Part shown: positions 1 through 50,609 of the stretch, one piece after another
Position numbering within the stretch: position 1 is the first letter of the stretch
Layout: each line of letters starts with the position of its first letter
Origin: Gemmatimonadales bacterium
Lineage (GTDB): Bacteria > Gemmatimonadota > Gemmatimonadetes > Gemmatimonadales > GWC2-71-9
Reading direction: 5' to 3'
NCBI GenBank assembly: GCA_035761145.1
Contig: DASTRQ010000171.1
Coordinates: forward strand, 1-52,651
DNA: 52,651 nt
The notes under the pieces: model-generated
What the model was told of the DNA's origin: nothing
What the model saw: the letters and a program-made list of their open reading frames with translations, nothing else
Database searches by the model: none
Made by a program: the position numbers and the translations under genes

Positions 1-192
1 GTCATCATCGGTGACACCCCCGCCGACGTGACCTGCGGGGCGGGGATCGGCGCGCGGCCGGTGGCGGTGGCCACCGGGCACTACCCGGCGGAGGCGCTCC
101 GCTCGGCGGGCGCCGCCCACGTCTTCGCCGATCTCACGGACACCGACCGCGTCCTCGAGGCCATCCTGTGGGATCGCTCGAGCTCGAACTGA
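1..192 (+). CDS. HAD-superfamily hydrolase (phosphoglycolate-phosphatase-like), C-terminal fragment; 5' end lies outside the window
   Basis: Frame 1 is open from base 1 to TGA 190-192. It reads VIIGDTPADVTCGAGIGARPVAVATGHY...AHVFADL, the GDxxxD motif region of HAD phosphatases. It is absent from the ORF track because no start codon lies in the window. Confidence 0.6.
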   Translation, partial: VIIGDTPADVTCGAGIGARPVAVATGHYPAEALRSAGAAHVFADLTDTDRVLEAILWDRSSSN

Positions 193-752
193 AGGGCGTG
201 GTGCCCGACCCCGCCGCGCTCGCCGCGCGCCTGACGGCCGCGGGAGGACGGCGCGCGTTCCGCGGGATGCTGCACGACCGCCGCTTCGACCGGGCGGGGG
301 AGCTCGCCGCCCGCGATGAGGTGCTGCGCACCCGCCGCTGGGTGCCCGACGAGGGGACCCCCCGCACCGAACTCGGGTGGAAAGGGCCTACCGCACGCTC
401 CCCCGAGGGCTACAAGTCCCGCGAGGAGCGCGAGCTCACCGTGACCGGGGGGGACGCCGAGGCGCTCCTCGCCGGGCTCGGCTATGCGCCGGTCCACGCG
501 ATCGACCGCCGCGTGGAGGTCTGGCACGTGGCCGAGGCGGTGGTGCGCGTGGAGTGGTATCCGCGGATGGACGTGCTGGTCGAGGTCGAGGGCGCCCCCG
601 GGGCGATCGAGGCCGCGATCCGCGCCAGCGGGCTTGCGCGCGCGAGCTTCAGCGACGAACCGCTCGCCGCCTTCACCGCACGCTACGATGCGGCGCACCC
701 CGGCGCGCCGAGCCTCGTGGCCAGGGAGGGATGGCGGGGAGGGCCAGCGTGA
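168..752 (+). CDS. CYTH-domain protein (CyaB/ThTPase-like)
   Basis: GTG start at 168. N-terminal LELELKG matches the ExExK CYTH signature. Size (~190 aa), alternating acidic/basic beta-strand pattern and GC3-rich codons fit. Confidence 0.65.
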   Translation: MGSLELELKGVVPDPAALAARLTAAGGRRAFRGMLHDRRFDRAGELAARDEVLRTRRWVPDEGTPRTELGWKGPTARSPEGYKSREERELTVTGGDAEALLAGLGYAPVHAIDRRVEVWHVAEAVVRVEWYPRMDVLVEVEGAPGAIEAAIRASGLARASFSDEPLAAFTARYDAAHPGAPSLVAREGWRGGPA

Positions 753-1471
753 GCGCCGCGCCCCGCCCTCGCGCGCCACGACCGGTGGTCCCCGAGCTCG
801 GGCCCGCGCTGGGACGGCTCACAAGCCTCCCCGGCGCGCGGGTGGCCGCCCCGCCACCGCCCCGCGTGGAGCTCGCCGACCTTCGCCTCGGCCTCGTGGA
901 CCGCGTCTTCGCCCTGGCGCACGACGCCCGGATGGCGCTCGATGCCGACGGCGCCGCCGAGCTCCTCTCCGCCGATCGCTGGCAACCGGTCTGGGAGCGG
1001 GCGGTCGAGGCCGCCGCGGCGCGCACCGCGGGCCGCATCGAGGATGCGCTTGCCGAGGCGGCGGCGGACGCCGCCCTCCCGGCCCGCCGGCGCCGGCGAC
1101 TCGCGCTCACCAAGGAGGAGCGCCAGCTCCTGCGCGCCCGGCTCGACGGCGCGGGGGTGCCCTTCTTCGACGCCATCGCCCACTTCGACGCAGCGTCGCC
1201 CGGCTCCGCGGAGTGGCGCGACCGGTTGCTGGCCGCGATGCACCGGCTCGAGGACGCCTGGCTCGAGGTGGAGCAGCGCGGACTGGCCGAGGAGGCGGCG
1301 TGGGGCGACGCCATCGCCCGGGTGCGCGCCTGGCGGCCTTCGCCGTGGCCGCGGCGCGTCCTGGCGGTCCTGCTCGCCGCGGCCGCCGGCTACCTTGGGC
1401 TCGTGCTCGGTGGCTTCGTGCCGACCCCCGCCCCCCTCGCCCCTCTCGTCACCTGGTGGTGGAGCCGATGA
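731..1471 (+). CDS. hypothetical protein with C-terminal transmembrane helix
   Basis: ATG 731 lies in the frame of track ORF 377..1471 and overlaps the CYTH stop. Ala/Arg/Glu-rich helical sequence ends in the hydrophobic VLAVLLAAAAGYLGLVLGGFV. ATGA overlap with acpS. The start is uncertain. Confidence 0.45.
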   Translation: MAGRASVSAAPRPRAPRPVVPELGPALGRLTSLPGARVAAPPPPRVELADLRLGLVDRVFALAHDARMALDADGAAELLSADRWQPVWERAVEAAAARTAGRIEDALAEAAADAALPARRRRRLALTKEERQLLRARLDGAGVPFFDAIAHFDAASPGSAEWRDRLLAAMHRLEDAWLEVEQRGLAEEAAWGDAIARVRAWRPSPWPRRVLAVLLAAAAGYLGLVLGGFVPTPAPLAPLVTWWWSR

Positions 1472-1857
1472 ACGTCCTCGGAGTGGGGATCGATCTCGTG
1501 GACATCCCTCGCGTCGCCGAGATGCTGGCGCGGCGCGAGTCGCAGGCGCTGCAGAAGCTGCTGACCTCCGCCGAGCGCGCCTTCGTGCTGGCCCAGCCGG
1601 TGCCGGCGCGGCACGTGGCGGCGCGCATCGCCGCCAAGGAAGCGGTGTATAAGGCGCTGCAGGCACTTCCCGACGCGCGGGCGGTGGGGTGGCAGGACAT
1701 CGAGGTGCTGCGGAGCGATCACGGCCGGCCGAGCATCCAGCTCCACGGTGTGGCGGCGACGCTCGCGGAGCGGCACGGGCCGCTCGTCATCGAGCTGTCG
1801 CTCAGTCATTCGGAGATGACGGCGGGGGCGGTGGCGATGGTGGGGGTAGCGCGGTAG
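1468..1857 (+). CDS. acpS: holo-[acyl-carrier-protein] synthase
   Basis: MNVLGVGIDLVDIPRV... and AAKEAVYKAL... are typical AcpS N-terminal and core motifs. ~129 aa. ATGA overlap with the upstream ORF. Confidence 0.9.
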   Translation: MNVLGVGIDLVDIPRVAEMLARRESQALQKLLTSAERAFVLAQPVPARHVAARIAAKEAVYKALQALPDARAVGWQDIEVLRSDHGRPSIQLHGVAATLAERHGPLVIELSLSHSEMTAGAVAMVGVAR

Positions 1858-1931
1858 CGTTTCATTGTTGCAACGTGAAACGGGTTGGGTGGCTTCGCGT
1901 ACGGGGGGCATCATCCTCACCGAGGTCACCG

Positions 1932-2336
1932 ATGTCGCAGTCCAGACTCGCCCGGGCACTCCTGGCGTTCCTCACCTTGGCGGCGGCGCTCCCGCTCCTC
2001 GCCCAGACCGCGGCCCCCGCCGCGACGCCTGCGTTCCCCTACGGCCGCTATACCCTGCAGGCGATCGATCCCGCCCACGCCCCGCCGGCTGGGCTCGTCC
2101 TGGAGTTCACCGCGAGCGCGCTCAAGGTGAGCAGCGGAGGGCAGGAGGTGGAGAGCCACGGGATGGCGGTGGATGGAGCCACCTGGGAGGTCTTCGACCT
2201 CGACGGCCGCTGCACCGAACCGGGCGACTACCACTGGCACCTGGATGGCAGAGTGCTCTGGATGGAGCTGGTCAGCGACCCCTGTGAGGACCGGGCCCGG
2301 AGCATCACCTCCATGCGATTCCTCCCCGCCGAATAG
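1932..2336 (+). CDS. secreted hypothetical protein
   Basis: ATG 1932 is followed by a signal-peptide-like LARALLAFLTLAAALPLLAQTAA. GC3-rich frame. A terminator hairpin follows. Confidence 0.55.
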   Translation: MSQSRLARALLAFLTLAAALPLLAQTAAPAATPAFPYGRYTLQAIDPAHAPPAGLVLEFTASALKVSSGGQEVESHGMAVDGATWEVFDLDGRCTEPGDYHWHLDGRVLWMELVSDPCEDRARSITSMRFLPAE

Positions 2337-2361
2337 AGCACGCTCGGCGACCGTCACGTGA

Positions 2362-2392
2362 GGCGCCCCGCTCAGGAGAGGGGGCGCTTTTG
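2362..2392 (+). terminator. intrinsic terminator after the 1932-2336 gene
   Basis: GCGCCCC (2363-2369) pairs with GGGGCGC (2381-2387) and is followed by TTTT (2388-2391). Confidence 0.6.
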
Positions 2393-2467
2393 CTCGTCCG
2401 GCCCGCCGCTGGAAATCCCTACCGTTGTGCTCTACTTTACCACCTGTCTTTCCCAATTCGGTTGAAA

Positions 2468-4621
2468 ATGCTTCTCAATCGTGTGGTGGCACTCGGCTCG
2501 CCCATCGTCCTCGGGCTCGTTCTCGGGGCGGCGCCGCTCCGCGCGGCCGATGACGTGCCGGCCACCGTACGCCGCATCGCGGCCACCACGCAGCTCGCGG
2601 CGCAGGAATACCGGATCGGCGTGCGCGACGGCAAGGTCGTGGCCCAGGCCGAGGTGGACGAGGCGAAGCTCTTCCTGACCGAGGCGCGCCGGGCCGCGGC
2701 GCTCCTCCCCGCGCCGGGTGACCGGGAGACCATCGCGGCGCTCGACGCCCTGCTCGGGCAGGTGGGGCGCACGGTCTCGCCAGATACCCTGGCCGCGGGG
2801 GTCGCGGCGCTCGGCGCCCGCCTGGCGGCCACGTACCAGGTCACGCTCGAGGAGATGCCCGCCACCCCTCCGTCGCTGGCGCGCGGGCGGGAGCTCTATG
2901 CCCGCGAATGCGCCAGCTGTCACGGCGTCGCGGGCGCGGGGGACGGGATCGCCGCCGCTACGCTCACCCCGCCGCCCGCCGACCTCACCGCCCGCGTCGT
3001 GCTCGCCGGCACCTCGCCGCTCGACTTCTACCGTCGCATCAGCATCGGGGTCGCGGGGACCTCGATGCCCGCCTATGAGGCCCGGCTCTCGAACGACGAC
3101 CGGTGGGCGCTCGCGGCGTACGCCTCGACGCTCCGCCTGCCGGCGCCCGCGGGGGATGTCCCCGCCGACCTGAGCGGCTTCGACGCCACGGCCCGGCTGA
3201 GTGACAGCGCCCTCGCGGCCGCGGTGGCCCCGGGGACCGACGTCTCCGCGCCGGCGGCGCTGGCGCGCGTGGCTGCGGTGCGGCAGGCGGCGACGCTCGA
3301 GGGGTCGCCGGTGGACTTCGGCCCCCTCTACGACCGGGTGCGCGCGACGCTCGCCACGGCCGTGGCCCAGGCCGAGGCGGGCCGCACCGAGGCGGCGAGC
3401 GCCACGGCGTTCGACGCCTACATGGCCTTCGAGAAGGTGGAGCCGACGCTCCGGGCCAAGGATGGCGGCCTGGCCGGCCGGCTCGAGGCGCAGTTCGCGG
3501 CGCTCCGCACGCGCGCCGCCGGCGGCGCCACCCCGGCGGAGCTGCGCCAGCTGCACGGCGAGCTCCTGGCCCAGCTCGAACTGGCCGAGCGGCTCACCGC
3601 GGAGCGGCCCTCGGCGACGAACCTCTTCCTGCAGTCGCTGGGCCTGATGCTGCGCGAGGGGCTCGAGGCGATCCTCATCGTCGGCGCCGTGCTCGCCTTC
3701 CTGACGCGCACCGGCGCCACCCGGCGCCGGCGCGACGTGCACGTGGGCGTCGGCGCGGCGGTGCTCGCGAGCCTGCTCACCGCGGTGGCGCTCGAGACGA
3801 TCTTCCAGCTCTCGGGCAACCAGCGTGAGGCGCTCGAGGGGCTCACGATGGTCCTCGCCGCGGCGGTGCTCTTCTACGTGAGCTACTGGCTGCTCAGCAA
3901 GATCGAGGTGGCCCGCTGGAACAAGTTCGTGAAGGAACAGGTCCAGGACGCCCTCTCCGGCGGTTCGGCCCTGGCGCTCGCCTCGGTGGCGTTCCTCGCG
4001 GTGTACCGCGAGGGGTTCGAGACGGTGCTCTTCTACAAGGCGCTCTACCTGGCGGGGGGCGCGGGGGCGTTCGGGCCCATCACCGCGGGGATCCTGGTCG
4101 GCGGCGCGGCGCTCGCGGTGCTCTACGTGGGGATCGAGCGCTTCGGGGTGCGGCTGCCGCTCAAGCCGTTCTTCGCGGTCACGAGCGCCTTCCTGTACTA
4201 CATGGCCTTCGTCTTCGCGGGGAAGGGGATCGCCGAGCTGCAGGGGGGCGGCTACGTGAGCGTGACACCCTTCACCCCCGAGATCCGGCTCCCCGCCCTG
4301 GGGATCTACTCCACCTGGGAGACGCTCGGCGTGCAGGGCTTCCTCCTGCTCGCCTTCCTCGGGGCGATGGTGTGGACCTTCCTCATCGAGCCGCGGCGCC
4401 TCAAGGTGACGGCGGTGATGGTGCCCGAGCCCGTTCCCGCCGGCACCGCCGCGTCCGCGGCCCCCGCCCCCGCGGGGACGATGGCGCCGGCAGCGGTGCT
4501 CGACCAGGATGTGCTCCGTTCGCTGGAGCGGATGGAGGCCGACGCGGCCGAGCTCAAGGCCGAGGTGCAGCGGCTCAAGGAACTGCTGGCGCGTCGGGCG
4601 ATCGACCGGATGACGACGTAG
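2468..4621 (+). CDS. cytochrome c / FTR1-family high-affinity iron permease fusion
   Basis: Signal peptide, then the heme-binding CASCHG (CxxCH) with distal Met (GTSMPAY). The polytopic C-terminal half carries the two FTR1 REXXE motifs (REGLEAILIVG, YREGFETVLFY). Confidence 0.85.
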   Translation: MLLNRVVALGSPIVLGLVLGAAPLRAADDVPATVRRIAATTQLAAQEYRIGVRDGKVVAQAEVDEAKLFLTEARRAAALLPAPGDRETIAALDALLGQVGRTVSPDTLAAGVAALGARLAATYQVTLEEMPATPPSLARGRELYARECASCHGVAGAGDGIAAATLTPPPADLTARVVLAGTSPLDFYRRISIGVAGTSMPAYEARLSNDDRWALAAYASTLRLPAPAGDVPADLSGFDATARLSDSALAAAVAPGTDVSAPAALARVAAVRQAATLEGSPVDFGPLYDRVRATLATAVAQAEAGRTEAASATAFDAYMAFEKVEPTLRAKDGGLAGRLEAQFAALRTRAAGGATPAELRQLHGELLAQLELAERLTAERPSATNLFLQSLGLMLREGLEAILIVGAVLAFLTRTGATRRRRDVHVGVGAAVLASLLTAVALETIFQLSGNQREALEGLTMVLAAAVLFYVSYWLLSKIEVARWNKFVKEQVQDALSGGSALALASVAFLAVYREGFETVLFYKALYLAGGAGAFGPITAGILVGGAALAVLYVGIERFGVRLPLKPFFAVTSAFLYYMAFVFAGKGIAELQGGGYVSVTPFTPEIRLPALGIYSTWETLGVQGFLLLAFLGAMVWTFLIEPRRLKVTAVMVPEPVPAGTAASAAPAPAGTMAPAAVLDQDVLRSLERMEADAAELKAEVQRLKELLARRAIDRMTT

Positions 4622-4661
4622 CGCAGGGGCGCAGGGGCGCAGGGTCGCAGGGTCGCAGGGG
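4622..4661. repeat. five tandem 8-mers (CGCAGGGK)5, G-tract rich
   Basis: The sequence reads cgcagggg cgcagggg cgcagggt cgcagggt cgcagggg directly after the FTR1 stop. A complementary CTGCGACCCTGC lies at 4676-4687. Confidence 0.95.
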
Positions 4662-4693
4662 GTGGGAGGCGGGCACTGCGACCCTGCAATGCT

Positions 4694-4787
4694 GTCATCC
4701 CGAGCGCAGCGAGGGATCTTGGAGGCGCGGCTCTGATCGGAGTCCGTCCTGCAAGATCCCTCGTTCGCTGCGCTCCCTCGGGGTGAC
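4694..4787. repeat. imperfect inverted repeat (REP/MITE-like palindromic element)
   Basis: Left arm GTCATCCCGAGCGCAGCGAGGGATCTTG (4694-4721). Right arm CAAGATCCCTCGTTCGCTGCGCTCCCTCGGGGTGAC (4752-4787). A 30-nt spacer separates them. Confidence 0.9.
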
Positions 4788-4817
4788 CGGGTCGCGCCTC
4801 TGCGTCCCTGCAGAAAT

Positions 4818-4844
4818 GAAAAGGTCCGCCGTAGCGGACCTTTT
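4818..4844. terminator. bidirectional intrinsic terminator hairpin
   Basis: GAAAA-GGTCCGC(4823-4829)-cgta-GCGGACC(4834-4840)-TTTT. A U-run is available on both strands (TTTTCGAA on +, TTTTCATTT on -). Confidence 0.75.
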
Positions 4845-4953
4845 CGAAGGAGGTGACTGGTAGCCCCCTGAGCTTTGACGGAGACGAGCAGAAGTGCCCG
4901 CTCCAACCCTTCTTCTACCAGCCACTTTGCCGTGGGCCGAACCGCGCCCTCAC
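4818..4953 (-). ncRNA. candidate ~135-nt small RNA (unclassified), predicted sigma-54 dependent
   Basis: Bounded by a -24/-12 promoter match and the intrinsic terminator. No credible ORF. Nested stems at 4857-4863/4915-4921 and 4880-4904. Anti-SD-like UCACCUCCUUC just 5' of the terminator. Ends are predicted, not observed. Confidence 0.45.
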
Positions 4954-4964
4954 TATCTCTATGG

Positions 4965-4979
4965 GCAAAGTTGGTGCCA
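4965..4979 (-). promoter_or_regulatory. sigma-54 (-24/-12) promoter match TGGCAC-N5-TTGC
   Basis: The minus strand reads GTGGCACCAACTTTGCCC. TGGCAC is the reverse complement of 4974-4979 and TTGC of 4965-4968, with an exact 5-nt spacer, in non-coding DNA. Confidence 0.5.
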
Positions 4980-5071
4980 CGGGTGAAGTGGAGGTGAAGT
5001 CGCTGTCTAACGTCTTTGTTCACATCGACTTAAGTGATGATCTCCGAGTGGTACCGCGACGGGCGGTTTGG

Positions 5072-5153
5072 TGTCAGATATTTGACAATTTGTAGTGCTA
5101 TTTTTGTAAAACATTGTCAAGCAACGAGTTACACGACTGTCAAAAATTTGACG
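5072..5153. promoter_or_regulatory. two enhancer-like palindromes TGTCA-N6-TGAC(A/G)
   Basis: TGTCAgatattTGACA at 5072-5087 and TGTCAaaaattTGACG at 5138-5153. Centres are 66 bp apart, ~125 and ~190 bp upstream of the predicted sRNA start. An extra TTGACAAT/ATTGTCAA inverted repeat lies at 5082-5089/5113-5120. Confidence 0.35.
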
Positions 5154-5190
5154 CTTACCATCGATCGACAGATTTTTTGACGATCCGGTC

Positions 5191-5258
5191 CCGCCCTTCG
5201 CGCTTGGCGCGCGGGGGCCCTCATCGGCGGCGGCGATCAGCGCCTCGAGGGTACGGCC
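5191..5258 (-). pseudogene. decayed duplicate of the 3' end of the GGDEF gene (frameshifted relic)
   Basis: 68 nt align with 7903-7971 with about 6 differences. The copy translates GRTLEALIAAADE and then loses frame through a 1-nt deletion, versus GRTLEALIAAADECLLRAKREGRN in the intact gene. Confidence 0.75.
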
Positions 5259-5270
5259 CGGTGTGCGCGG

Positions 5271-7682
5271 TCAGGGGTCGGAGATGACACTTTCCACGAT
5301 GCGCGTCCCAAGCCAGGTGTACCCGAGGAAGGGGAGCCCGGCGGGGGAGATCCCGAACGATCGCGGGTAGGCGCCGTTGAGGGCGACGTGGCGCAGCTCG
5401 GCCCCGGTGGTCAGGTCGAATGCGTACAGATGCAGCGTCGGCACCGGTTCGGTGCTGGTGGCCGTGAAGAACCGGCCGGCCACGGGCCCGGTGCTGATGC
5501 CGGACGTGAGGAATCCAGGATGGGATCCCAGGTCGCCGCCGGTCGACAGATCGAGCAGGTGGCCATCGGCGATCGCGCGGGTGGAGGAGAGGATCCGGGC
5601 CGGCACGCCGACGTTCAGCGCCAGCCCCACGGAGTCGAGCGAGGACTGGGCCCCCGGCGCGATCGTTCGCCGGTAGACGTTGTATCCGTTCATCAGCACG
5701 AGGGTGTCGCCGAAGAAGGCGCCGGAATGCACGCCGGAGGAGAATGTGTCGATCGCGGCGCGAGGGACGGTCCCGTCGTAGGTCCGCGACCAGTTGGCGT
5801 ATTCGTTCCCGGTCACGTTCACCGCCAGCACGAAGGTGCCGGGGTAGGCGTCCTCCGGAGCGATGAACACCGGTGTGGTCGCCTCGCCGTTGACGGTGAA
5901 CCCGTCGATCGCCCAGTCCAGCGTCCAGGCATCGAGGTCGATCCGGCAGATCTTGACCCCGCCCGCACAGATGGCATAGAGGTACTTCGACGCCCCTCCG
6001 AAGAAGAGCCGGGCGCCGTGGTCCGGGAGCGCGAGCGACTTGAGCACCTCCCCTGTCGAGGGGTCGAGTGCGACGAGCGTGGTCGGTTCGTTCGCGGCAG
6101 CCGGGTCCTTCATGGCCCCATACATCAGGTCCCGTGCCGTATCACTGGCCCAGGAGGAGGGCTCTGGCCCCGGGAGCTCCACGACGCGCCGGACCCCGGT
6201 GGTCCAGACCGGCAGGACGACCGCCGGCGAGGGGCCGGTCGTCGGCGCGGGGGCTTGCAGCGTCAGCGAGAGCAGGCGGCCGGCCTGCAGGACCGCGTCA
6301 GGCAGCTGGAATGTCGCGGACGTCGAGTCGCCCGAGAGGATCTGCAGCGTATCGACCGGGTCGGTGTCGAACGGTCCGCTGTGCAGCTCCGCCGTCGTGC
6401 CGGGGATGAAGCCATGCCCGAAGAAGGTCACGAACTGGGTCCCGCTGTCACTCCGCACCGCCTCGGGGGTGACGGAATCCGTGACCGGCACGGGGTTGGG
6501 GGTGACGAGCTGGAGTGTGACCGCGTTCGACGTCCCGCCGCCTGGTGCGGGAGTGCGGAAGGCCACGGAATACGCCCCCCCGGCCGGGACCTCCGCGGAA
6601 TCGACCTGGAAGGTGACCATGTCCGTCGAGAAGAAGGTCAACGGTCGGGCGACGCCGTTCACCAGCACCTCGCCCAGGCCGCGGAAGCCGGCGCCGTACA
6701 GGGCGTACTCGGTCGTCACGCCGGCGAGCCCCGTCCCGGGTACGATCGAATCCACGTTCGGCGCCGGGCTCAGGATGCCGATCGGCAGCGGTGCGGAGGT
6801 CCGGTCGTCCCACGTGTCGACCACCGTCACGGCCGGGGAGCCGCCCAGGAGCAGCGCGCCCTCCGTGACGACCACGCGGATGGTGTCGTAGGAGATCACC
6901 GTCGACGAGGCGACATCGAGCCCCTGGACCCGGACGACCATCCCGGCCACGAACCCCGTGCCGATGACATCGAAAGTGTCTGCTGTCGCCGAGCCGTCGA
7001 GTGTATCGGGCGCGAAGCCGGTGATGACCGGGGTCGGATCGTAGGTCTCGACCAGGCGCGCATTCGACCACCCTCCCGGCGCGTGCACGCTGAAGCTCAG
7101 CGCGCCGATCGATGCGAGACCGTCTCGAGGGAGGTCGAACTCCACCGTCGTGTCGGTCACGGTCCCGGGGGCGAGCCCGAACTCATCGCCCTGATAGGAG
7201 TACCGGACCGAATCGGCGCCGGCGAGGCCGGTGCCCTGGATGATGAAGGGAATGGGACCGGGTCCGACCATGACCGAGTCGGGCACGGTGCCAGTGATGG
7301 CCGGCACGGCTGGGGGGCTGAGGATGACGAACGACCTGGCGGCGCTGGTCCCGCCTCCCGGCTCACCGGTGAAGACCGTGACCTGGGCCGTGTCCGGGGC
7401 GGCGAGGGCCGCGGCATCCAGGGTGAAATCGACACGCCCGGCATTGACGAAGGTGGTGGGCCGGCCCACGCCGTTCCACTGGACCACGGAACCGCTCGTG
7501 AAGGAATCGCCCAGGGCGCCGACCGTGAGCCCCGGCGTGCCCGCGGTGGCCGTATCGCGCGTGAGCCCGGTGAGCACCGGGGCAGGATTCGGGCTTGGGC
7601 CACCACCGCCATCCCCACTGCCGCAGGAGAGGGCGAGGGGAATGGCGACGATGAGGCCGAGTGTGAGGGCCGGGAAGCGCAC
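5271..7682 (-). CDS. lipoprotein with five IPT/TIG-like repeats and a C-terminal beta-propeller-like domain
   Basis: GTG start with lipobox LALSCGS. There are five ~85-90-aa repeats of the IPT pattern (P-x-I/V-x-x-hydrophobic-x-P...G-x-G-F...V-x-hydrophobic-x-G...TS), then a ~330-aa beta-rich C-terminus. Noticeably more A/T-ending codons than the neighbours. Confidence 0.75.
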   Translation of the reverse strand: MRFPALTLGLIVAIPLALSCGSGDGGGGPSPNPAPVLTGLTRDTATAGTPGLTVGALGDSFTSGSVVQWNGVGRPTTFVNAGRVDFTLDAAALAAPDTAQVTVFTGEPGGGTSAARSFVILSPPAVPAITGTVPDSVMVGPGPIPFIIQGTGLAGADSVRYSYQGDEFGLAPGTVTDTTVEFDLPRDGLASIGALSFSVHAPGGWSNARLVETYDPTPVITGFAPDTLDGSATADTFDVIGTGFVAGMVVRVQGLDVASSTVISYDTIRVVVTEGALLLGGSPAVTVVDTWDDRTSAPLPIGILSPAPNVDSIVPGTGLAGVTTEYALYGAGFRGLGEVLVNGVARPLTFFSTDMVTFQVDSAEVPAGGAYSVAFRTPAPGGGTSNAVTLQLVTPNPVPVTDSVTPEAVRSDSGTQFVTFFGHGFIPGTTAELHSGPFDTDPVDTLQILSGDSTSATFQLPDAVLQAGRLLSLTLQAPAPTTGPSPAVVLPVWTTGVRRVVELPGPEPSSWASDTARDLMYGAMKDPAAANEPTTLVALDPSTGEVLKSLALPDHGARLFFGGASKYLYAICAGGVKICRIDLDAWTLDWAIDGFTVNGEATTPVFIAPEDAYPGTFVLAVNVTGNEYANWSRTYDGTVPRAAIDTFSSGVHSGAFFGDTLVLMNGYNVYRRTIAPGAQSSLDSVGLALNVGVPARILSSTRAIADGHLLDLSTGGDLGSHPGFLTSGISTGPVAGRFFTATSTEPVPTLHLYAFDLTTGAELRHVALNGAYPRSFGISPAGLPFLGYTWLGTRIVESVISDP

Positions 7683-7735
7683 GATGTGTGTGGGATGAGG
7701 AGGAGCGGTGCACGACGGATGGTCAGGAGAAACTT

Positions 7736-7766
7736 GAACGCCGCTGACGGGGTGTCAACGGCGTTC
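7736..7766. repeat. 31-nt palindrome upstream of the IPT lipoprotein gene
   Basis: GAACGCCGcTGACggggtGTCAaCGGCGTTC, 54-84 nt upstream of the GTG at 7682. Confidence 0.85.
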
Positions 7767-7854
7767 GCAGTACGTGCATCGAGGTGTCGCTCAGGCTGTC
7801 AGGATCTTTGACGGACCCCCCCTCGATCCTACGATTCGTCAAGAAATTTGACGG

Positions 7855-8979
7855 TCACTCCTCGTCGCGTGTTCCCCCGCTGAGCCGAGTGACCACGCGG
7901 TTCCGCCCTTCGCGCTTGGCGCGCAGGAGGCACTCATCGGCGGCGGCGATCAGCGCCTCGAGGGTGCGGCCATCGGCGGGGAAGGTGGCGACCCCGGCGC
8001 TGATGGTGAGGTGGCTGGGCTCGCGGTCGTCGGGGAGGTCGAGCTGGGTGGCCTCGATGGCCCGGCGGATGGCTTCGAGCTTGTTGGTGGCGCCGGCGAT
8101 CGCCGTCTCCGGGAAGAGGAGCGCGAACTCCTCGCCCCCGTAGCGGGCCAGCACGTCGGTGCGTCGCACCCGGCGCGAGAGGGTGTCCGCCACCGTGACC
8201 AGCACGGCGTCGCCGACCGGGTGACCGTGGACGTCGTTGAACGTCTTGAAGTGGTCCACGTCCACCAGGGCCACGGCGAGAGGGCGGCCGTACCGACGCG
8301 CGCGCTCGAACTCGGCGTCGGCGCGGCGGTCGAAGTAGGCCCGGTTCCCCACCGAGGTGAGCGGGTCGGTGCTGGCGGCCTGCTGGAGCTTCTGGGCGCG
8401 GTACACGAGGAGCCAGGCGAGGAGCACCGCGCTCACCATCAGGATGAGCCGGGTCACCTGGTCGGGGAAGCTGAAGGGACCCACCGCCTCCTGGCCCATC
8501 CCCGGGGCGGTCAGGTCCCAGCGCCACATCGTGTAGCCCACGAGCGCCCCGTACTGCGCGATGGCGAGCCCCCCCGCGGCGAGCACGATCCGCGCGTCGT
8601 AGCGGAGCGCCGTGGCCGCGATGGCCAGGAAGTAGACCTCGTAGGTGACCCTGCTGTTGACGCCGAAGAGCGGGAGCCCGACCGCGGTGAAGAGCGCGAG
8701 CGCCAGGGTCACCAGCGACACGTCGAGGCCGCTGCTCGCGAAGCCGATCCAGGAGCCGTAGCGCCCGCGGCGAAGCGCCATCCAGATCAGGATGGCCGCG
8801 CTGAACCCGGCCGCGGTGACCACGAAGCCGAGCCGGTAGATGGGATCGGCCGGGGCGAGGAAAAGCTTCCACGTCGGGGTGATCATCAGCAGCGTCGTGA
8901 CCACCAGGCGGGCCCACGCGACGCTCCGCTCCCCCTCCGCGCCGGCCGCCGCGAGCGCCGCCGTGGGCGGCCGCAGCAT
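7855..8979 (-). CDS. membrane-anchored diguanylate cyclase (GGDEF)
   Basis: About 6 hydrophobic helices precede a GGDEF domain with active site RYGGEEFALLF and an RxxD I-site (RRTD) five residues upstream. Confidence 0.9.
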   Translation of the reverse strand: MLRPPTAALAAAGAEGERSVAWARLVVTTLLMITPTWKLFLAPADPIYRLGFVVTAAGFSAAILIWMALRRGRYGSWIGFASSGLDVSLVTLALALFTAVGLPLFGVNSRVTYEVYFLAIAATALRYDARIVLAAGGLAIAQYGALVGYTMWRWDLTAPGMGQEAVGPFSFPDQVTRLILMVSAVLLAWLLVYRAQKLQQAASTDPLTSVGNRAYFDRRADAEFERARRYGRPLAVALVDVDHFKTFNDVHGHPVGDAVLVTVADTLSRRVRRTDVLARYGGEEFALLFPETAIAGATNKLEAIRRAIEATQLDLPDDREPSHLTISAGVATFPADGRTLEALIAAADECLLRAKREGRNRVVTRLSGGTRDEE

Positions 8980-9026
8980 CCGGGCGATGGTGGGGCGCGA
9001 GAAGCCGCCCGAGAAGCGGGTTCGGT

Positions 9027-9860
9027 TCAGGCCGCCTCCGGCGCCAGGTAGGGGCCCGGCGCCGTGGCGGGTGCCGCGCGGAGCCGGCGCATCAGCGCCG
9101 CGCCCGCGATCACGAGGAGCACGCTCATCGCCTGCGCCAGGGTGAAGGGACCGAGGATCCGGTCATCCTTGGCGCGCACGATCTCGATCAGGAAACGCTC
9201 CACCCCCGCGAACGCGAGGTAGGCGCCGAAGAGCCACCCGGTGCCGCGCCGCCGCCCCCGCCACGCCCAGAGCACCGCGAAGGCGCCGAGCATCATCGCC
9301 ACCTCGTACAGCTGGGTGGGATGCACCGCGAGCACCGTCGTGGGCGCCATGTCGGCGGGGAGGGCCACGTGGAGCTGGTCGCGCAGGTTGGCCACCGTGC
9401 TGGGGGGCATCCCCTGCGGGAACTTCATCCCCCACGGGAGCGAGGTGGGGCCGCCGTAGTCGTCATTGACGAGGAAGCACCCCACCCGGCCCAGCGCGTA
9501 CGCGGCGGCGAGCGCTGGCGCCACGAGCTGCGCCGTCCACGCGGTCGGGACCTTGAGCCGGATCCCGTTGAGCGCCACCGCCAGCGCCCCCCCCACGAAG
9601 CCGCCGTACCACACCAGCCCGCCGCGCGAGAACAGGGCGCCGGGGTCGCGGGTGAGCGCCACGTACCAGAGCTTGGCCCCGACGATCCCCCCCACCACGG
9701 CGGCGAGGGTGATGTCGGACGCATACTCCTCCCGCCACCCCCGGCGCCGGAGCTCGAGCTGGATGAGCCAGCTCCCGGTCAGGAAGCCGACCATCATCAT
9801 CAGGCCGTAGCCGGTGATCTCGAGGGGGCCGAGGTGGAGGACGAAGGGGTAGATGGTCAT
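9027..9860 (-). CDS. lgt: prolipoprotein diacylglyceryl transferase
   Basis: N-terminal GPLEITGYGLMMMVGF and the HPTQLYE signature in a polytopic protein of 277 aa. Confidence 0.9.
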   Translation of the reverse strand: MTIYPFVLHLGPLEITGYGLMMMVGFLTGSWLIQLELRRRGWREEYASDITLAAVVGGIVGAKLWYVALTRDPGALFSRGGLVWYGGFVGGALAVALNGIRLKVPTAWTAQLVAPALAAAYALGRVGCFLVNDDYGGPTSLPWGMKFPQGMPPSTVANLRDQLHVALPADMAPTTVLAVHPTQLYEVAMMLGAFAVLWAWRGRRRGTGWLFGAYLAFAGVERFLIEIVRAKDDRILGPFTLAQAMSVLLVIAGAALMRRLRAAPATAPGPYLAPEAA

Positions 9861-9861
9861 T

Positions 9862-9882
9862 GGTCGAGGGTCGAGGGTCGAG
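9862..9882. repeat. (GGTCGAG)3 heptamer array followed by GTCACCG x2
   Basis: Exact tandem heptamers fill the 24-bp tsaD-lgt spacer. Confidence 0.95.
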
Positions 9883-9884
9883 AG

Positions 9885-10946
9885 TCACCGGTCACCGCCC
9901 ACCATCCCGGGCAGAGGCAGTACGGCTTTGGGCTCCAGGTCCCAGCCGTGGCGCTCGCCCTGGGCCAGGTGCCAGAGGCCGGCGGCGCCGATCATGGCGG
10001 CGTTGTCCTGGTTGAGTCGCGGCGTGGCGGCCACCACGCGCGCCGTTCCCTCGAGGCGCCGGCCGAGCGCCGTGAGCAGGGCCTGGTTCGAGGCCACGCC
10101 GCCCCCGACCACGGCGGTCGGGTGGCCGAGCGCCTCGACCAGGTGGGCCGTCTTCTCGACCAGGACCTCGACGGCGGCGTCCTGGAACTCCCGGCAGAGG
10201 TCGGCACGGTCGGCGGCCAGGTCGGCCGAGCGCTGGACCGCACGGAGCACCGCGGTCTTGAGCCCGCTGAAAGAAAACGCATACTCGTCCGGGCCGCTGC
10301 GACCCAGCTCACCGAGCATCGGGCGGGGGAACGGGAAGCGTCCGGGGCGCCCGTCCCGGGCCAGGCGCTCGATCTTGGGTCCCCCGGGGTAGTCGAGCCC
10401 GAGGAGGGTGCCCACCTTGTCGAACGCCTCGCCCGCGGCGTCATCCTTGGTGGCGCCGACGACGCGATACCGCCCCCACTCGGGAACGTCGAGCAGGAGG
10501 GTGTGGCCGCCGCTCACCAGCAGGGCGACGAACGGCGGGCGGAGCGTCGGGTCCTCGAGCGCCGCGGCGAAGAGGTGCCCTTCGAGGTGGTGCACGCCGA
10601 GGAAGGGCTTGTCGTGGACCCAGGCGAGGGCCTTGCCGTACATCGCGCCGACGAGGAGCGCGCCGACGAGGCCGGGCCCCTGCGTCACCACGATGCCGTC
10701 GAGCCGCTCCATCGTCGTCCCCGCCTCGGCCAAGGCGCGATCCACGATATCGGGGAGGGCCACGAGGTGGGCGCGGCTCGCCAGCTCGGGGACCACGCCG
10801 CCGAAGATGCGGTGCACGTCCTGCGACAGGATGACGACGCTCGCCGCGCGCGGATCGCCGTGGTGGCGGGGACCGGCGTCGCCGCTCCCCTCGACGACGG
10901 CGGCGCTGGTCTCGTCGCAGCTCGTCTCGAGCGCCAGGACGCGCAT
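9885..10946 (-). CDS. tsaD: tRNA N6-adenosine threonylcarbamoyltransferase
   Basis: MRVLALETSCDETSAAVV, HLEGH and GGVASN motifs of the Kae1/TsaD family. Confidence 0.92.
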   Translation of the reverse strand: MRVLALETSCDETSAAVVEGSGDAGPRHHGDPRAASVVILSQDVHRIFGGVVPELASRAHLVALPDIVDRALAEAGTTMERLDGIVVTQGPGLVGALLVGAMYGKALAWVHDKPFLGVHHLEGHLFAAALEDPTLRPPFVALLVSGGHTLLLDVPEWGRYRVVGATKDDAAGEAFDKVGTLLGLDYPGGPKIERLARDGRPGRFPFPRPMLGELGRSGPDEYAFSFSGLKTAVLRAVQRSADLAADRADLCREFQDAAVEVLVEKTAHLVEALGHPTAVVGGGVASNQALLTALGRRLEGTARVVAATPRLNQDNAAMIGAAGLWHLAQGERHGWDLEPKAVLPLPGMVGGDR

Positions 10947-11599
10947 CAGGGGTGGCCGGGGAGGAGCCGGACGGCGGCGGGCCGCGCCTCGCCCGAGAGC
11001 CCCGCGGGGAGCACCACGCGGAGCGCGGCCGCCCCCGCCAGCGTGTCGGGGACGGTCACCACGACGAGGCTCTCGCGCGGCAGGGTGGTGAGCCGGCCGC
11101 GGGGGCCGCGCACGTCCACGGTCACCGTCTCGGGCACGGCATGCCAGTGCCGGGTGAGCGGGCCGGCCAGGAGCACCGGGATGCCGGGGTGCCGCACGGT
11201 GATGAGCGCCGCGGCGCCCACCCCCATCACCCGCACCGGCACGGTGGCGGGGAGCACCTCCACCACGCTCGCCTGCACCCCGCGCGGGAGGAGCACGTCG
11301 GAGGTCTCGAGCGGCAGGGAGAGCCGCCCTTCGGCGGTGTCGGTGACGGTCTTGGTGACGGTGACGGGGCGGCCGCCGAGCTTGAGGAGCTCGCGCGCGG
11401 CGCCCGCGAGGCGTACCGTGACGGTGGGGGGCGCGCCGCTCAGCTCGCGCCCCGCCGGGGGCTCGAGCTCGAGGCGGGCGCGGACGTAGCGGGTGACCGG
11501 CTCCTCGAGGGTGGCCACCACCCAGAGGAGGATGGCGAGGAGGAGCGAGGTGAGCTTGAGGGGCCAGTTCCGGGTGAGCCGGCGGAGGAGCGCGGTCAC
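10946..11599 (-). CDS. YbbR-like domain membrane protein
   Basis: GTG at 11599 overlaps the upstream stop (GTGA). An N-terminal TM (LKLTSLLLAILLWVVA) is followed by repeated beta-rich V-x-V segments typical of YbbR repeats. This is a weak family call. Confidence 0.5.
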   Translation of the reverse strand: MTALLRRLTRNWPLKLTSLLLAILLWVVATLEEPVTRYVRARLELEPPAGRELSGAPPTVTVRLAGAARELLKLGGRPVTVTKTVTDTAEGRLSLPLETSDVLLPRGVQASVVEVLPATVPVRVMGVGAAALITVRHPGIPVLLAGPLTRHWHAVPETVTVDVRGPRGRLTTLPRESLVVVTVPDTLAGAAALRVVLPAGLSGEARPAAVRLLPGHP

Positions 11600-12129
11600 G
11601 ACCCGTCGGCGAGGAGCCGGTCGAGGAGCTGGCGGTTGGCGGCGCTGTTCCAGTCGTGCGCGCCGATCTTGCGCGCCACGATGCGCCCGTCGCGGTCTAG
11701 GAGGAAGCTCTCGGGGACGCCGGTGGTCTGGTACACCCCCTGGATGGCGCCGGTCGGGTCGTGCAGGATGTCGAAGGTGAGCGCGTACTGGCGCACGAAG
11801 GCGCGCACCGGGTCGGCGCTCCCCTCGTCGATGCTCACCGCCGCGATCTTGAACCCGCGCGCGGCGTAGTCCTTGTACAGCGCCTCCATCGAGGGCATCT
11901 CGGCCCGGCAGGGCCCGCACCAGGTGGCCCAGATGTTGACGAGCGTCACGTGGCCGGCCACGAAGTCGCGGAGCGCCACGGTGTCGCCGGTGGCGAGCAC
12001 CTCGACCCGGGCGTCGGGCGCGCGGGCGCCGACCCCCACGATCCCCTCGTCATTGGCGCGGGTGAGGGCGAAGCCCCCGAGGGCGAGGGTGGCGATGACG
12101 CCGAGGGCGACGAGCCATTGCTTGGACAT
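11596..12129 (-). CDS. TlpA/ResA-like periplasmic thiol:disulfide oxidoreductase
   Basis: Signal/anchor sequence, then the thioredoxin fold with WATWCGPC. Confidence 0.85.
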   Translation of the reverse strand: MSKQWLVALGVIATLALGGFALTRANDEGIVGVGARAPDARVEVLATGDTVALRDFVAGHVTLVNIWATWCGPCRAEMPSMEALYKDYAARGFKIAAVSIDEGSADPVRAFVRQYALTFDILHDPTGAIQGVYQTTGVPESFLLDRDGRIVARKIGAHDWNSAANRQLLDRLLADGS

Positions 12130-12130
12130 C

Positions 12131-12802
12131 TCAGGCCTCCTGGCTGCAGGCGCGCCGGAGGGCGCGCAGGGCGGCCGCGGGATCGGGCTGCCCGAAGACC
12201 GCCTGGCCGGCCACGAAGGTGTCGGCCCCCGCGCGCCAGGCGTCGGTGATGGTGTCGAGCGCGATGCCGCCGTCCACCTCGAGCGCCGCGGCGCTCCGCC
12301 GGCGGTCGAGCAGGGCGCGCGCCCGCGCGATCTTGTCCGTGCTGGCGGGGATGTAGCGCTGCCCGCCGAAGCCCGGGTTGACGCTCATGATGAGCAGGAG
12401 GTCCAGGTCGCCCGCGACCTCCTCGACCACCTGGAGCGGGGTCGAGGGGTTGAGCGCGAGCCCCGCCTGCATCCCCCGCTCGCGCACCGCCACGAGGTGG
12501 CGCTGCACGTGCACCGTGGCCTCGGGGTGGAAGGTGAAGATGGCGCAGCCGAGGTCGGCGTACGGGGCGATGAAGCGCTCCGGCTCGACGACCATCAGGT
12601 GCACGTCGAGCGGGAGGTCGGTCACCTTGCGGAGCGCCGCCACGAGCGGCGCGCCGAAGGTGAGGTTGGGCACGAAGCGCCCGTCCATCACGTCCACGTG
12701 CACCAGGTCGGCGCCGCCGGCCTTGGCCTCGGCCAGCTGCTCGCGGAGGCGGCCCAGGTCGGCGCTCAGCACGCTCGGGGCGAGGCGGATCTTCGGCGTC
12801 AT
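12131..12802 (-). CDS. rpe: ribulose-phosphate 3-epimerase
   Basis: PSVLSADLG, DVMDGRFVPN and SVNPGFGGQ motifs. 223 aa. ATGA overlap with the upstream PASTA gene. Confidence 0.92.
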   Translation of the reverse strand: MTPKIRLAPSVLSADLGRLREQLAEAKAGGADLVHVDVMDGRFVPNLTFGAPLVAALRKVTDLPLDVHLMVVEPERFIAPYADLGCAIFTFHPEATVHVQRHLVAVRERGMQAGLALNPSTPLQVVEEVAGDLDLLLIMSVNPGFGGQRYIPASTDKIARARALLDRRRSAAALEVDGGIALDTITDAWRAGADTFVAGQAVFGQPDPAAALRALRRACSQEA

Positions 12803-13563
12803 TGCGGCTCTCCGGCCACGACCACGTCCACCCGGCCGTCCTTGGCGGCGAGCCCTCCCGCCGCCGGCCGCTGGCGCACGATGCGCCCCGCAGGGACGCC
12901 GGGGTTGGACTCGGTGGTGATGCGGCCGATGGTGAGCCCGGCGTCGAAGAGCCGCTCGCGCGCGTCGGGCACGGTGAGGCCGCTCACGTCGGGGATGGCG
13001 GTGCTCGCGGGGCCGGCGCTCACGACGAGGGTGATCCGGTCGTTCCGGTTCCGCGCCACGCCGCTGGCCGGCCGGGTGGCCAGCGCGGTCCCCTTGGGGG
13101 CCGCGTTGGCCACCGAATCCACCCCCTGGATGGGGAGCCCCGCGGCCTGCAGCACGCGGAGCGCCAGCGGCGCGTCCATCCCCTCGACGTCGGGCACCGC
13201 GCGGTCGGCGGGACCGTCGCTCACCATCAGGGTGACGGTGGTGGCGGTGCCGAGCTCGGTGTACGGCGGCGGGTCCTGCCACACCACCGCCCCCGCCGGG
13301 AGGCGGGGATGCGAAAGCTCCCCCTCGCGCTTCACCCGGAAGCCGGCGTCGGTGAGAGTCTGCTCCGCCTGCGCCACCGGCATCTCGAGCACCCGCGGGA
13401 CCGCCCGGGTCTCGTCGAAGAGCGGGGCGGGGTAGAGCCAGAGCGCCGCGACCAGGTACCCGGCCAGGGTGGCCAGGAAGACGAGCGACACCTGCAGCAG
13501 CAGGCGCCGGCCGGTGACGGTGCGGGTGATGCCGCTCCAGGGGAATCGGGGCACGCCGGTCAT
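12799..13563 (-). CDS. membrane-anchored protein with three PASTA domains, no kinase or transpeptidase domain
   Basis: ATG 13563 is preceded by GGGAGGG. One TM (LLLQVSLVFLATLAGYLVAALWL) is followed by three ~65-aa PASTA-like repeats, each beginning V/I-P-x-V/L-x-G and ending in a beta strand plus G-P. Confidence 0.75.
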   Translation of the reverse strand: MTGVPRFPWSGITRTVTGRRLLLQVSLVFLATLAGYLVAALWLYPAPLFDETRAVPRVLEMPVAQAEQTLTDAGFRVKREGELSHPRLPAGAVVWQDPPPYTELGTATTVTLMVSDGPADRAVPDVEGMDAPLALRVLQAAGLPIQGVDSVANAAPKGTALATRPASGVARNRNDRITLVVSAGPASTAIPDVSGLTVPDARERLFDAGLTIGRITTESNPGVPAGRIVRQRPAAGGLAAKDGRVDVVVAGEPQ

Positions 13564-13637
13564 CCCTCCCTGACGTTGGATGCCGCTCCAGTGCGAGCCG
13601 GCCGGGGTGCCCGGGGTCTCGGGGGTCTCGGGCGCGG

Positions 13638-14921
13638 TCACGCGACCCTCCGCAGCCGGGCGCAGAAGGCGCCGTCGGTCCCGTGCACGTGGGGCAGGAG
13701 CGCGAGGTCGCCGGCGGCGGTGCGGCCGGCGAGTTCGGGGCCCGGCTCGCGCCGGAATCCGGGATGGTCGGCGAGGAAGCGCTCCACTTGTCCCTCGTTC
13801 TCCTCGGGTTCGATGGAACAGGTGGCGTACACCAGCAGCCCGCCGGGGCGCACCACCGTGGCCGCGCCGTGGAGCAGGGCCCGCTGCCGGGACACCACCA
13901 GCTCGAGCGCCCGCGGGTCCACCTTCCAGCGCGCGTCGGGATGGCGGGCGAAGGTGCCGGTGCCGAGGCAGGGGGCGTCGAGCAGGACCACGTCGCACGG
14001 TCGCACGGGCGGGGCGGCGGCATCGGCGGCGATGGGATGCTCCCTGCCGCTCCCGGCGCGGGCCAGGTTCTGCGTTAGGCGCCGCACCCGCGCCACGTTC
14101 CGGTCTCCCGCGATCACGCGGCCGGTGGCGCCGGCGGCGCGCCCGAGGGCGATGGTCTTGCCGCCGGGGGCGGCGCAGGCGTCATAGACCGTGGCCCCCT
14201 CGGGGACGTCGGCGTATCGGGCCACGAGCGCCTGCGCGGGATCCTGGACCACGAACCCTCCTTCCGCGAAGCCGGGGAGCGCCGTCGGCGTCCGGCCTTC
14301 GACCACGAGGCCCGCGCCGTAAGGGGCGGCGCGGACGTGGAGCCCCTCCTGGCGGAACGCCGCCTCGAGCTGGGCGGCGGACCAGCGCGCCGGCTGGACC
14401 ACGAGCGGGGGCGGGGTGTCGTTCCAGAGGAGGAGCTCCTTCGTCCCCTCGACCCCGAAACGCGCGTCCCACCGGAGCACGAGCCACGCCGGGTGCGACC
14501 GTCGCGATCCCGCCTCGCTCCCGGCAGGGGCCCCGCGCTCGGCCAGGCGCCGCAGCACCGCGTTGACGAAGCGCGCCGCGCGCTCCCCCGCCACTCGCTT
14601 GGCCAGCTCGGTGCTCGTGGAGACCGCCGCGTGGGCGGGCACCTTGTCGAGCTCGAGGAGCTGGTAGGCGCCGAGCCGGAGGACGTCGCGGAGCTTCGGG
14701 GCCACGCTCTCCCACCCGTGCTCGGTGAGCGGGGCGAGGGCGGTGTCGAGGTCGCCGCGCCGCCGCAGCACGCCGGCCGCCAGTTCGTGTGCCAGGCGGC
14801 GGTCCCGCTCGTCCAGCCCGTCCACCGCGCGGTCGCGCGCGGCGTCGAACGGGGCCCCGCGCGCCACCGAGGCCAGGATGCCGTACGCGGCGCGGCGTGC
14901 CGCGCTGTCGGGTCCGCTCAG
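13638..14921 (-). CDS. rsmB: 16S rRNA (cytosine967-C5)-methyltransferase
   Basis: NusB-like N-terminus (ARRAAYGILASV...) and methyltransferase motifs CAAPGGKT, DAPCLGTG, VYATCS. The only in-frame start candidate upstream of the conserved N-terminal helix and near the thiG stop is CTG 14921-14919 (CTGA overlap). Confidence 0.85.
   Translation of the reverse strand: MSGPDSAARRAAYGILASVARGAPFDAARDRAVDGLDERDRRLAHELAAGVLRRRGDLDTALAPLTEHGWESVAPKLRDVLRLGAYQLLELDKVPAHAAVSTSTELAKRVAGERAARFVNAVLRRLAERGAPAGSEAGSRRSHPAWLVLRWDARFGVEGTKELLLWNDTPPPLVVQPARWSAAQLEAAFRQEGLHVRAAPYGAGLVVEGRTPTALPGFAEGGFVVQDPAQALVARYADVPEGATVYDACAAPGGKTIALGRAAGATGRVIAGDRNVARVRRLTQNLARAGSGREHPIAADAAAPPVRPCDVVLLDAPCLGTGTFARHPDARWKVDPRALELVVSRQRALLHGAATVVRPGGLLVYATCSIEPEENEGQVERFLADHPGFRREPGPELAGRTAAGDLALLPHVHGTDGAFCARLRRVA

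Positions 14922-49262: not shown

Positions 49263-50609
<1,347 letters not shown>

Follow-up and report, generated by a model that had tools for sequence, protein, structure and literature searches.

In Escherichia coli K-12, the e14 element is integrated into the 3' end of icd, a C-terminal pseudogene fragment of this gene, icdC, lies beyond the insert in direct orientation, and recombination between gene and fragment would yield a chimeric gene end (PMC13626634). Orphan 3' ends are also described for Rhs, contact-dependent inhibition (CDI), and type VI secretion system (T6SS) loci, where a newer module is followed by the gene ends that it displaced, and displacement involves one homologous and one illegitimate junction and no dedicated recombinase (PMC5361080, PMC3240628). 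Direct repeats likewise flank a DNA segment where transposons and insertion sequences (IS) have duplicated their target site. Here, we describe a locus that resembles each of these systems in part. It lies on contig DASTRQ010000171.1 of a Gemmatimonadales bacterium (GCA_035761145.1), of which positions 1–52,651 of the forward strand were analyzed (hereafter the window), and it consists of a gene for a GGDEF diguanylate cyclase, a gene for an IPT/TIG-repeat lipoprotein, and, behind the latter, a second and frameshifted copy of the end of the GGDEF gene. The genome (G000) is a metagenome-assembled genome (MAG) of 2.1 Mb in 241 contigs, with a completeness of 77%.

The repeat is an ordinary scar of recent recombination, and the slot that holds it is unusually dynamic. 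With moderate confidence, we read positions 5189–5258 as a young orphan copy, without function, of about 23 codons at the 3' end of the GGDEF gene, made by illegitimate, microhomology-level recombination in the lineage of this species.

A second copy of the GGDEF gene end

The intact diguanylate cyclase gene (7855–8979, minus strand) encodes 374 amino acids with GGEEF and RxxD motifs and matches the Pfam GGDEF family at 2.6e-46. Its codons for GRTLEALIAAADECLLRAKREGR (7903–7971, minus strand) include the last conserved residues of the GGDEF domain, DGRTLEALIAAADECLLRAKREGRNRVV, and are the source of an orphan pseudo-fragment at 5189–5258, on the same strand and approximately 2.7 kb away. An earlier inspection of the window (the original prediction) had presented 5191–5258 as a near copy of 7903–7971, and alignment, shuffled sequences, and a genome search all agree with it. 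Between these two segments, 65 of 69 columns are identical (94%), with substitutions at 5215, 5219, and 5253—i.e. 3, rather than the 6 or so first reported—and a 1-nt deletion. When 5178–5258 is set against 7890–7971, pairwise alignment and a repeat finder return 82 columns with 7 substitutions and a 1-nt gap (~90% identity).

The core repeat is 94–96% identical, its longest exact run is 33 nt (5220–5252 = 7933–7965), and identity falls steeply on either side of its 68–70 nt. On the left, an 11-nt flank (5178–5188) retains 7/11 identities with 7890–7900, and on the right the last matching position is 5258, 12 nt from the stop codon of the lipoprotein gene, as had been predicted to within a nucleotide. 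The similarity is highly significant: the core local alignment scores 122, while shuffled sequences reach a mean of 16 and a maximum of 28 (z = 42). A search of the whole 2.1-Mb genome yields just 2 copies (E = 6.2e-25) and no third copy of the repeat, the next matches having E values of at least 0.002 over 21–42 nt.

The left copy has no start codon and is out of frame. Its translation reads GRTLEALIAAADEGP and then changes frame at a 1-nt deletion at ~5213, which had been noticed originally and is also found in an independent contig. The lesion is clustered, with the deletion and 2 of the substitutions falling within 5213–5219, and it gives the left copy the specific sequence GCGCGGGGGCCCTC, compared with GCGCAGGAGGCACTC in the right copy. 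With its frame restored, the left copy reads GRDRIVKKSVDRW followed by a stop; yet 5169–5193 is orthologous to an intergenic spacer in a related genome (see below), and the last 7 codons of the restored frame are AT-rich like the neighboring AT-rich island, unlike coding DNA (GC content at third codon positions, GC3, of 88–97% in neighboring genes).

Other assemblies carry the same arrangement. A contig from the ENA (L060; SPAdes, another sample, 8,671 nt, 98.7% identical) covers 4819–13468 and holds both copies, both junctions, and the identical 1-nt deletion. A JGI contig of 6,050 nt has the order lgt-GGDEF-IPT-634 nt-FTR1, and a fourth sample has the order lgt-GGDEF-IPT. Three single-run Logan contigs (L057, L058, and L059), each from a different run, also carry the IPT gene, and all contain the junction at 5258/5259. 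Two of these terminate inside both copies (L057 at 5223/7962 and L058 at 5229/7927), as is expected of a k = 31 graph at a 33-nt exact repeat, and L059 ends just short of both. Altogether, the IPT gene is present in 5/5 independent contigs that cover the GGDEF-IPT junction. Because independent assemblies span both copies and junctions, an assembly artefact, a concern that accompanied the original prediction, is excluded.

The copy varies slightly among strains. Site 5253 is A in the window and in L057 and is G, like the source copy, in L060 and L058, and site 5154 is similarly variable; these are 2 of ~105 positions in or beside the copy, in strains that differ by ~0.2% across the IPT gene. 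One metagenome scan with a 39-nt pattern for the left, right, deletion, and circle-product forms of the repeat returned no matches, although near-identical records may be missing from what it covered, and exact look-ups of the GGDEF and FTR1 products of the window returned no record.

Comparison of the window with L060 also reveals a patch of ~2 kb (~8700–10800) with ~2–5% divergence per 250-nt bin, while elsewhere there are at most 3 differences per 250 nt (~0–1%). The patch spans the N-terminal half of GGDEF, lgt, and tsaD, and, judged by this pattern, has the appearance of DNA imported by recombination, with one of its ends falling within GGDEF. Between lgt and tsaD, a heptamer array (GGTCGAG repeats; 9859–9885) is ~21 nt longer and of different composition in L060, which indicates variation in repeat number in an intergenic microsatellite.

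Age of the gene order and of the repeat

We compared the locus with those of 6 genomes of the same genus (G001, G002, G003, G005, G007, and G008) and of metagenome contigs. The genus tree has 2 clades, and the window genome is sister to (G003,(G005,G008)) when the tree is rooted on its longest branch. Three other lineages share the GGDEF-IPT-island order: M1, a G005-like genome with the whole locus on contig L061; M2 (L063); and M3 (JGI metagenome contigs L067, L068, and L069). In M1 and M2, the order is lgt-GGDEF-palindromes-IPT-island-sRNA-FTR1, where sRNA is a small RNA locus. A protein search shows that their IPT orthologues, in the same position, are 61% (M1) and 57% (M2) identical to that of the window, and the neighboring genes are similarly diverged (window vs M1: IPT 61%, GGDEF 66%, FTR1 73%, tsaD 77%, and lgt 82%), so the gene order predates these species.

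No tail repeat lies behind the IPT gene in M1 or M2, where the flanks are alike at the palindrome level only; M3, whose flanks (L067/L068) were compared by eye alone, shares the gene order. The repeat was originally taken to mark insertion of the IPT gene, and this idea is not supported, since M1 and M2 have the same arrangement without it. The repeat is still 94–96% identical while the gene order has diverged, and it is thus the younger of the two. From these comparisons, the GGDEF-IPT order is old, with IPT often lost (or regained), and the tail copy is recent and confined to this species.

The slot between lgt and the island differs greatly among genus members. It is empty in G001 and G002, holds GGDEF alone in G003 and G008, a distant IPT-like gene alone in G007 (28% identity), and both GGDEF and IPT in G005 and the window. 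The GGDEF stop codon adjoins the AT-rich island, with no IPT gene, in G003, G008, and contigs L066, L070, and L069, and L066 and L070 represent 2 further lineages that lack IPT. GGDEF abutting the island, which had been proposed as the original state of the locus, is therefore real in these genomes.

The presence of IPT also flips among close relatives, as in G005 (with) and G008 (without; 91% identity) or G007 (with) and G002 (without; 88%), and even within a species. Specifically, M3 is polymorphic, L067 and L068 having IPT and L069 lacking it, with an identical GGDEF protein and 97% identity between the flanks; the indel begins at the GGDEF stop codon and ends ~14 nt beyond the IPT stop. 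In the IPT-minus L069, it is thus GGDEF that uses the terminator hairpin common to both forms. A recent foreign origin of IPT is rejected, as orthologues with 57–61% identity occupy the same position and GC3 is only mildly atypical (88% vs 93–97% in the neighbors); set beside the identities of the adjacent genes, IPT is a somewhat fast-evolving, vertically inherited neighbor and not a recent import.

The original prediction also described a degenerate repeat of ~120 bp, in which similarity resumed further out at palindromes. Both palindromes are where it placed them. The one at 5139–5152 (GTCAAAAATTTGAC) belongs to the AT-rich island (5072–5152, no strand assigned), together with TGTCAGATATTTGACA at 5072–5087. 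Its counterpart at 7838–7852 (GTCAAGAAATTTGAC), 2 nt from the GGDEF stop, and a further palindrome at 7797–7812 (TGTCAGGATCTTTGAC) belong to a second such region, island', which with the IPT leader occupies 7683–7854 on the minus strand; this layout of 2 operator-like palindromes is kept in M1, M2, and M3. The palindrome regions themselves (5132–5168 vs 7831–7868) give a 38-nt local alignment with ~79% identity (z = 6.9), a score reached by 0/500 shuffles. Between palindrome and core, however, 5154–5190 and 7854–7902 show no similarity above chance, as 849/1000 shuffles reach the score. The outward similarity is thus genuine, but the "~120-bp repeat" consists of 2 separate similarities rather than a continuous one.

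In addition, the left spacer (5169–5193) aligns with the intergenic sequence that follows GGDEF in G003, at an equal offset from the palindrome (0/1000 shuffles reach the score); it is the orthologue of that spacer and not a copy of the C-terminal extension on the right. A single duplication of 120–190 nt, comprising palindromes, C-terminal extension, and core, is rejected on both grounds—i.e. a middle at chance level and a left spacer orthologous to that of G003. The pattern TGTCA-N5-7-TTGAC occurs 6 times in the 2.1-Mb genome, with 3 occurrences at this locus. In M1, M2, and M3, sites of this kind directly follow the GGDEF stop and precede IPT, and they are present in the island of every genus member, even those without GGDEF or IPT. 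The palindrome similarity is accordingly an older, conserved operator-like motif that is separate from the core repeat.

Origin of the copy

The segment between the 2 copies (5259–7902) has the content originally reported, namely 1 gene and its upstream region. Its only long open reading frame (ORF) is the IPT lipoprotein gene (5271–7682, minus strand; 803 aa, signal peptide ending in LALSC, stop codon TCA at 5271–5273), preceded by its leader and followed by a 12-nt trailer that runs from the stop codon to the junction at 5258/5259 (5259–5270, minus strand). Pfam matches in this ORF are to IPT/TIG alone, with none to an integrase/recombinase or transposase family. There are no tRNA or tmRNA genes in positions 1–14000 of the window and no terminal inverted repeats among the inverted pairs found around the segment. 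The repeat, at 68–81 nt and 90–94% identity, is unlike an exact target duplication of 2–14 bp, and with exactly 2 copies in 2.1 Mb it lacks the many copies of a dispersed element of the repetitive extragenic palindrome (REP) or miniature inverted-repeat transposable element (MITE) kind. It is not an attachment-type boundary either, given that M1 and M2 carry the bracketed gene without it; M3, its flanks compared by eye, also has the gene at that place. The repeat is a gene end, while in other species the boundary of the IPT module lies directly after the GGDEF stop and not inside the gene. Insertion mediated by an integrase or transposase is rejected because there is no recombinase family, there are no terminal inverted repeats, and the gene is present in relatives without the repeat. 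The view that this is no transposase-style target duplication has therefore held up, and a scar of illegitimate recombination, as was also proposed at the outset, is the best reading for the core repeat.

In our preferred reconstruction, the order lgt-GGDEF-island'-IPT-island-sRNA would already have been in place at the time of the event. One junction (J2, 5258/5259) would have joined codon G331 of GGDEF to a point 12 nt beyond the IPT stop, and the other (J1, ~5189) would have linked the REGR codons with the island spacer where the two share 8 nt of imperfect microhomology (minus strand, CGGnACCG). At J1, the minus strand reads CGGGACCG, compared with CGGAACCG in the source (7/8 identical), and the flank at 5178–5188 is a candidate for this microhomology. 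The most likely route would be a replicative double template switch. Equivalently, a 2,713-bp unit (5259–7971) may have been duplicated in tandem, followed by the imprecise collapse of one copy. This account is the simplest and requires no donor DNA. Either route would replace the original sequence behind IPT with a 70-nt patch. The relatives M1, M2, and M3 carry a hairpin behind IPT, and the window has none there. After the event, the copy would have acquired the clustered lesion (5213–5219) and the polymorphic substitution at 5253.

Several observations favor this reconstruction. The core differs from its source by a single clustered lesion and a single strain-polymorphic site, recombination tracts end inside GGDEF in the strain comparison, and the 5258/5259 junction is novel, in direct order, and has a near-identical local template, as is expected of tandem duplication or template switching. 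The resulting copy is probably functionless. Other points weigh against it. No conspecific genome or contig that lacks the tail copy was found, so the pre-event state is unobserved, and the candidate routes look the same at the sequence level. The frame-restored left copy (...RAKREGRDRIV) resembles the true domain end, GRNRVV, and homology could extend to 5178, as it would for an old displaced gene end. In both copies, the stop codon lies 2 nt from the palindrome, which a simple 70-nt patch leaves unexplained. To our knowledge, templated patches of such size are poorly documented in bacteria, and the suggested lack of function draws on 3 or 4 near-identical strains only.

The main rival is C-terminal displacement or homology-facilitated illegitimate recombination (HFIR), the original idea in its viable form, which we regard as possible but clearly the less probable account. 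Under this scenario, an IPT-less ancestor with GGDEF abutting the island, as in G003, would have re-acquired the module: DNA from an IPT-plus donor would have recombined homologously inside GGDEF and illegitimately at 5258/5259, bringing in a new gene end, island', and IPT, while the old gene end was pushed downstream and decayed. An orphan fragment of the upstream gene's 3' end, downstream of the module and in the same orientation, is what such an event leaves, and the mechanism itself is documented (PMC3240628), with orphan 3' ends produced by it in T6SS and Rhs loci (PMC5361080). Haplotypes without IPT are frequent, and a single species can hold them alongside haplotypes with it; in this population, GGDEF contains the ends of recombination tracts. 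The left spacer, moreover, resembles the one that follows GGDEF in G003, which lacks IPT, and does so as far as the place of the stop codon in G003. The left copy, once its frame is restored, also ends in GRDRIV, a plausible end for a GGDEF domain. Nevertheless, displacement takes more steps—i.e. loss of IPT, one-sided recombination, and later deletion of the old C-terminal extension and stop—and one-sided recombination is orders of magnitude rarer than an ordinary double crossover (PMC5361080). It must also treat a near-identical core beside unalignable neighboring sequence by special pleading, and no IPT-minus genome of this species was found, all strain-level contigs carrying IPT.

The close match between the copies could in principle have been maintained, with the duplication dating from the first entry of the IPT module and the left copy kept near-identical by repeated gene conversion. 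The palindrome regions that flank IPT do resemble an old duplication or shared motif in all IPT-plus species, and polymorphic site 5253 matches the source in 2 of 4 strain contigs. We consider this unlikely, as nothing behind IPT in M1 or M2 recalls a tail copy, conversion would need to persist over a tract of just 70 nt with non-homologous sequence on either side, and the frameshift lesion, common to the window and L060 (the 2 covering assemblies), was not converted away.

We give still less credence to a functional copy, whether as a 3' untranslated region (3'-UTR) element shared by the GGDEF and IPT mRNAs or as a recombination switch between direct repeats. Both copies do sit at the 3' end of a minus-strand mRNA, 33 identical nt suffice for rare RecA-dependent recombination, and the presence of IPT is highly dynamic in the genus. 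However, none of the orthologous loci tested in other species has the copy, sites 5154 and 5253 vary among strains that are nearly uniform across IPT, none of the 5 contigs over the GGDEF-IPT junction has lost the gene, and in the predicted deletion product the GGDEF domain would end out of frame. As a target of the adjacent sRNA the copy is rejected, since duplex energies are no better than those of shuffled sequence, and as a terminator it is rejected because no such structure was found, with no U-run after any hairpin. It is a very long shot that the repeats excise IPT and the regulatory island as a circle independently of a recombinase, or that gene conversion keeps the copy as a 3'-UTR element. 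Were the switch real, the last ~15 residues of the diguanylate cyclase would be swapped for a frameshifted tail, and cells that lost a surface lipoprotein would at the same time change their cyclic di-GMP signaling, beside a sigma-54-dependent sRNA.

Finally, chance or an assembly artefact, for which one might cite a 77%-complete MAG in 241 contigs and GC-rich sequence, is already refuted by the significance of the match (E = 6e-25; z = 42 against shuffles), by assemblies from other samples that span both copies, and by the 5258/5259 junction itself, for which an assembler needs covering reads and which contigs of 3 runs contain.

The surrounding slot and comparison with known systems

On its far side, the slot is bounded by an sRNA locus (4815–4979, minus strand) with a sigma-54-type −24/−12 element (4979–4962, TGGCAC-N5-TTGC), a structured sRNA, and a terminator hairpin (4817–4846). 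The sRNA of ~135 nt has a single-stranded CCUCC tract and a long stem with 12 covarying pairs, followed by the terminator. Across 15 sequences from 10 genera of the family (the window, L035, L036, L054–L056, L048, and L040–L047), the promoter motif TGGCAY-N5-KTGC—i.e. TGGCA(C/T)-N5-(T/G)TGC—is invariant. A comparison of the island and the sRNA with Rfam found no match at the gathering score, and otherwise sub-threshold matches only. The AT-rich island is kept in 7/7 genus members examined, including those without GGDEF and IPT, and the sRNA promoter probably has its upstream activator site there.

The genome encodes 6 strong sigma-54 activators (PF00158), one of them at 49692–50189. The 77%-complete assembly yielded no sigma-54 DNA-binding domain (PF04552); rpoN is probably located in the 23% that is missing. 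Operator-like sites (TGTCA-N6-TGACA / GTCAA-N-TTTGAC), often after AACGAGTTAC, are present upstream of the sRNA promoter, upstream of IPT, and on contig C71, where 9030–9130 forms a third locus with the same motif set and otherwise does not align. These sites are candidates for a small regulon controlled by a single DNA-binding protein, perhaps a sigma-54 activator. In G007 (L048, 6880–7000), the IPT-like lipoprotein gene starts a few dozen nt past lgt with no palindrome island between them, and it is apparently co-transcribed with the lipoprotein-modifying enzyme; island' as a part of every IPT cassette is rejected by this arrangement.

On its own, the scar matters little, as illegitimate recombination is known to leave gene fragments behind in plastic bacterial genomes. 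It is also a dated marker: being young and lineage-specific, it can be used to type strains of this uncultured Gemmatimonadota species. Furthermore, it carries a warning for annotation and assembly, given that 2 of 3 k-mer assemblies end inside the copies and that the left copy yields spurious ORFs. More broadly, GGDEF and IPT genes come and go, even within a species, in the slot that separates lgt from an sRNA conserved across the family and apparently dependent on sigma-54.

Among described systems, e14 icd/icdC is the nearest textbook look-alike, yet the two differ in kind. As a prophage, e14 encodes an integrase and uses a defined attachment site, whereas a single lipoprotein gene with no recombinase is bracketed here; moreover, this gene belongs to the ancestral state of the locus, and the gene order is older than the fragment. 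Transposon and IS target-site duplications are 2–14 bp long, in contrast to the 70 nt of a repeat that has 2 genomic copies, no terminal inverted repeats, and no transposase. Rhs, CDI, and T6SS loci are toxin-immunity arrays with serial displacement, while here there is a single 70-nt fragment of a signaling gene and no array, and the fragment, being nearly identical to the resident gene end, is not an older, divergent allele. Scars of tandem duplication or template switching differ in that only a 70-nt remnant is present here, with no full second unit and no observed intermediate. With these scars, the locus nonetheless shares a junction of points 2.7 kb apart in direct order, microhomology at one junction, and a copy that is identical to its nearby template save for later mutations.

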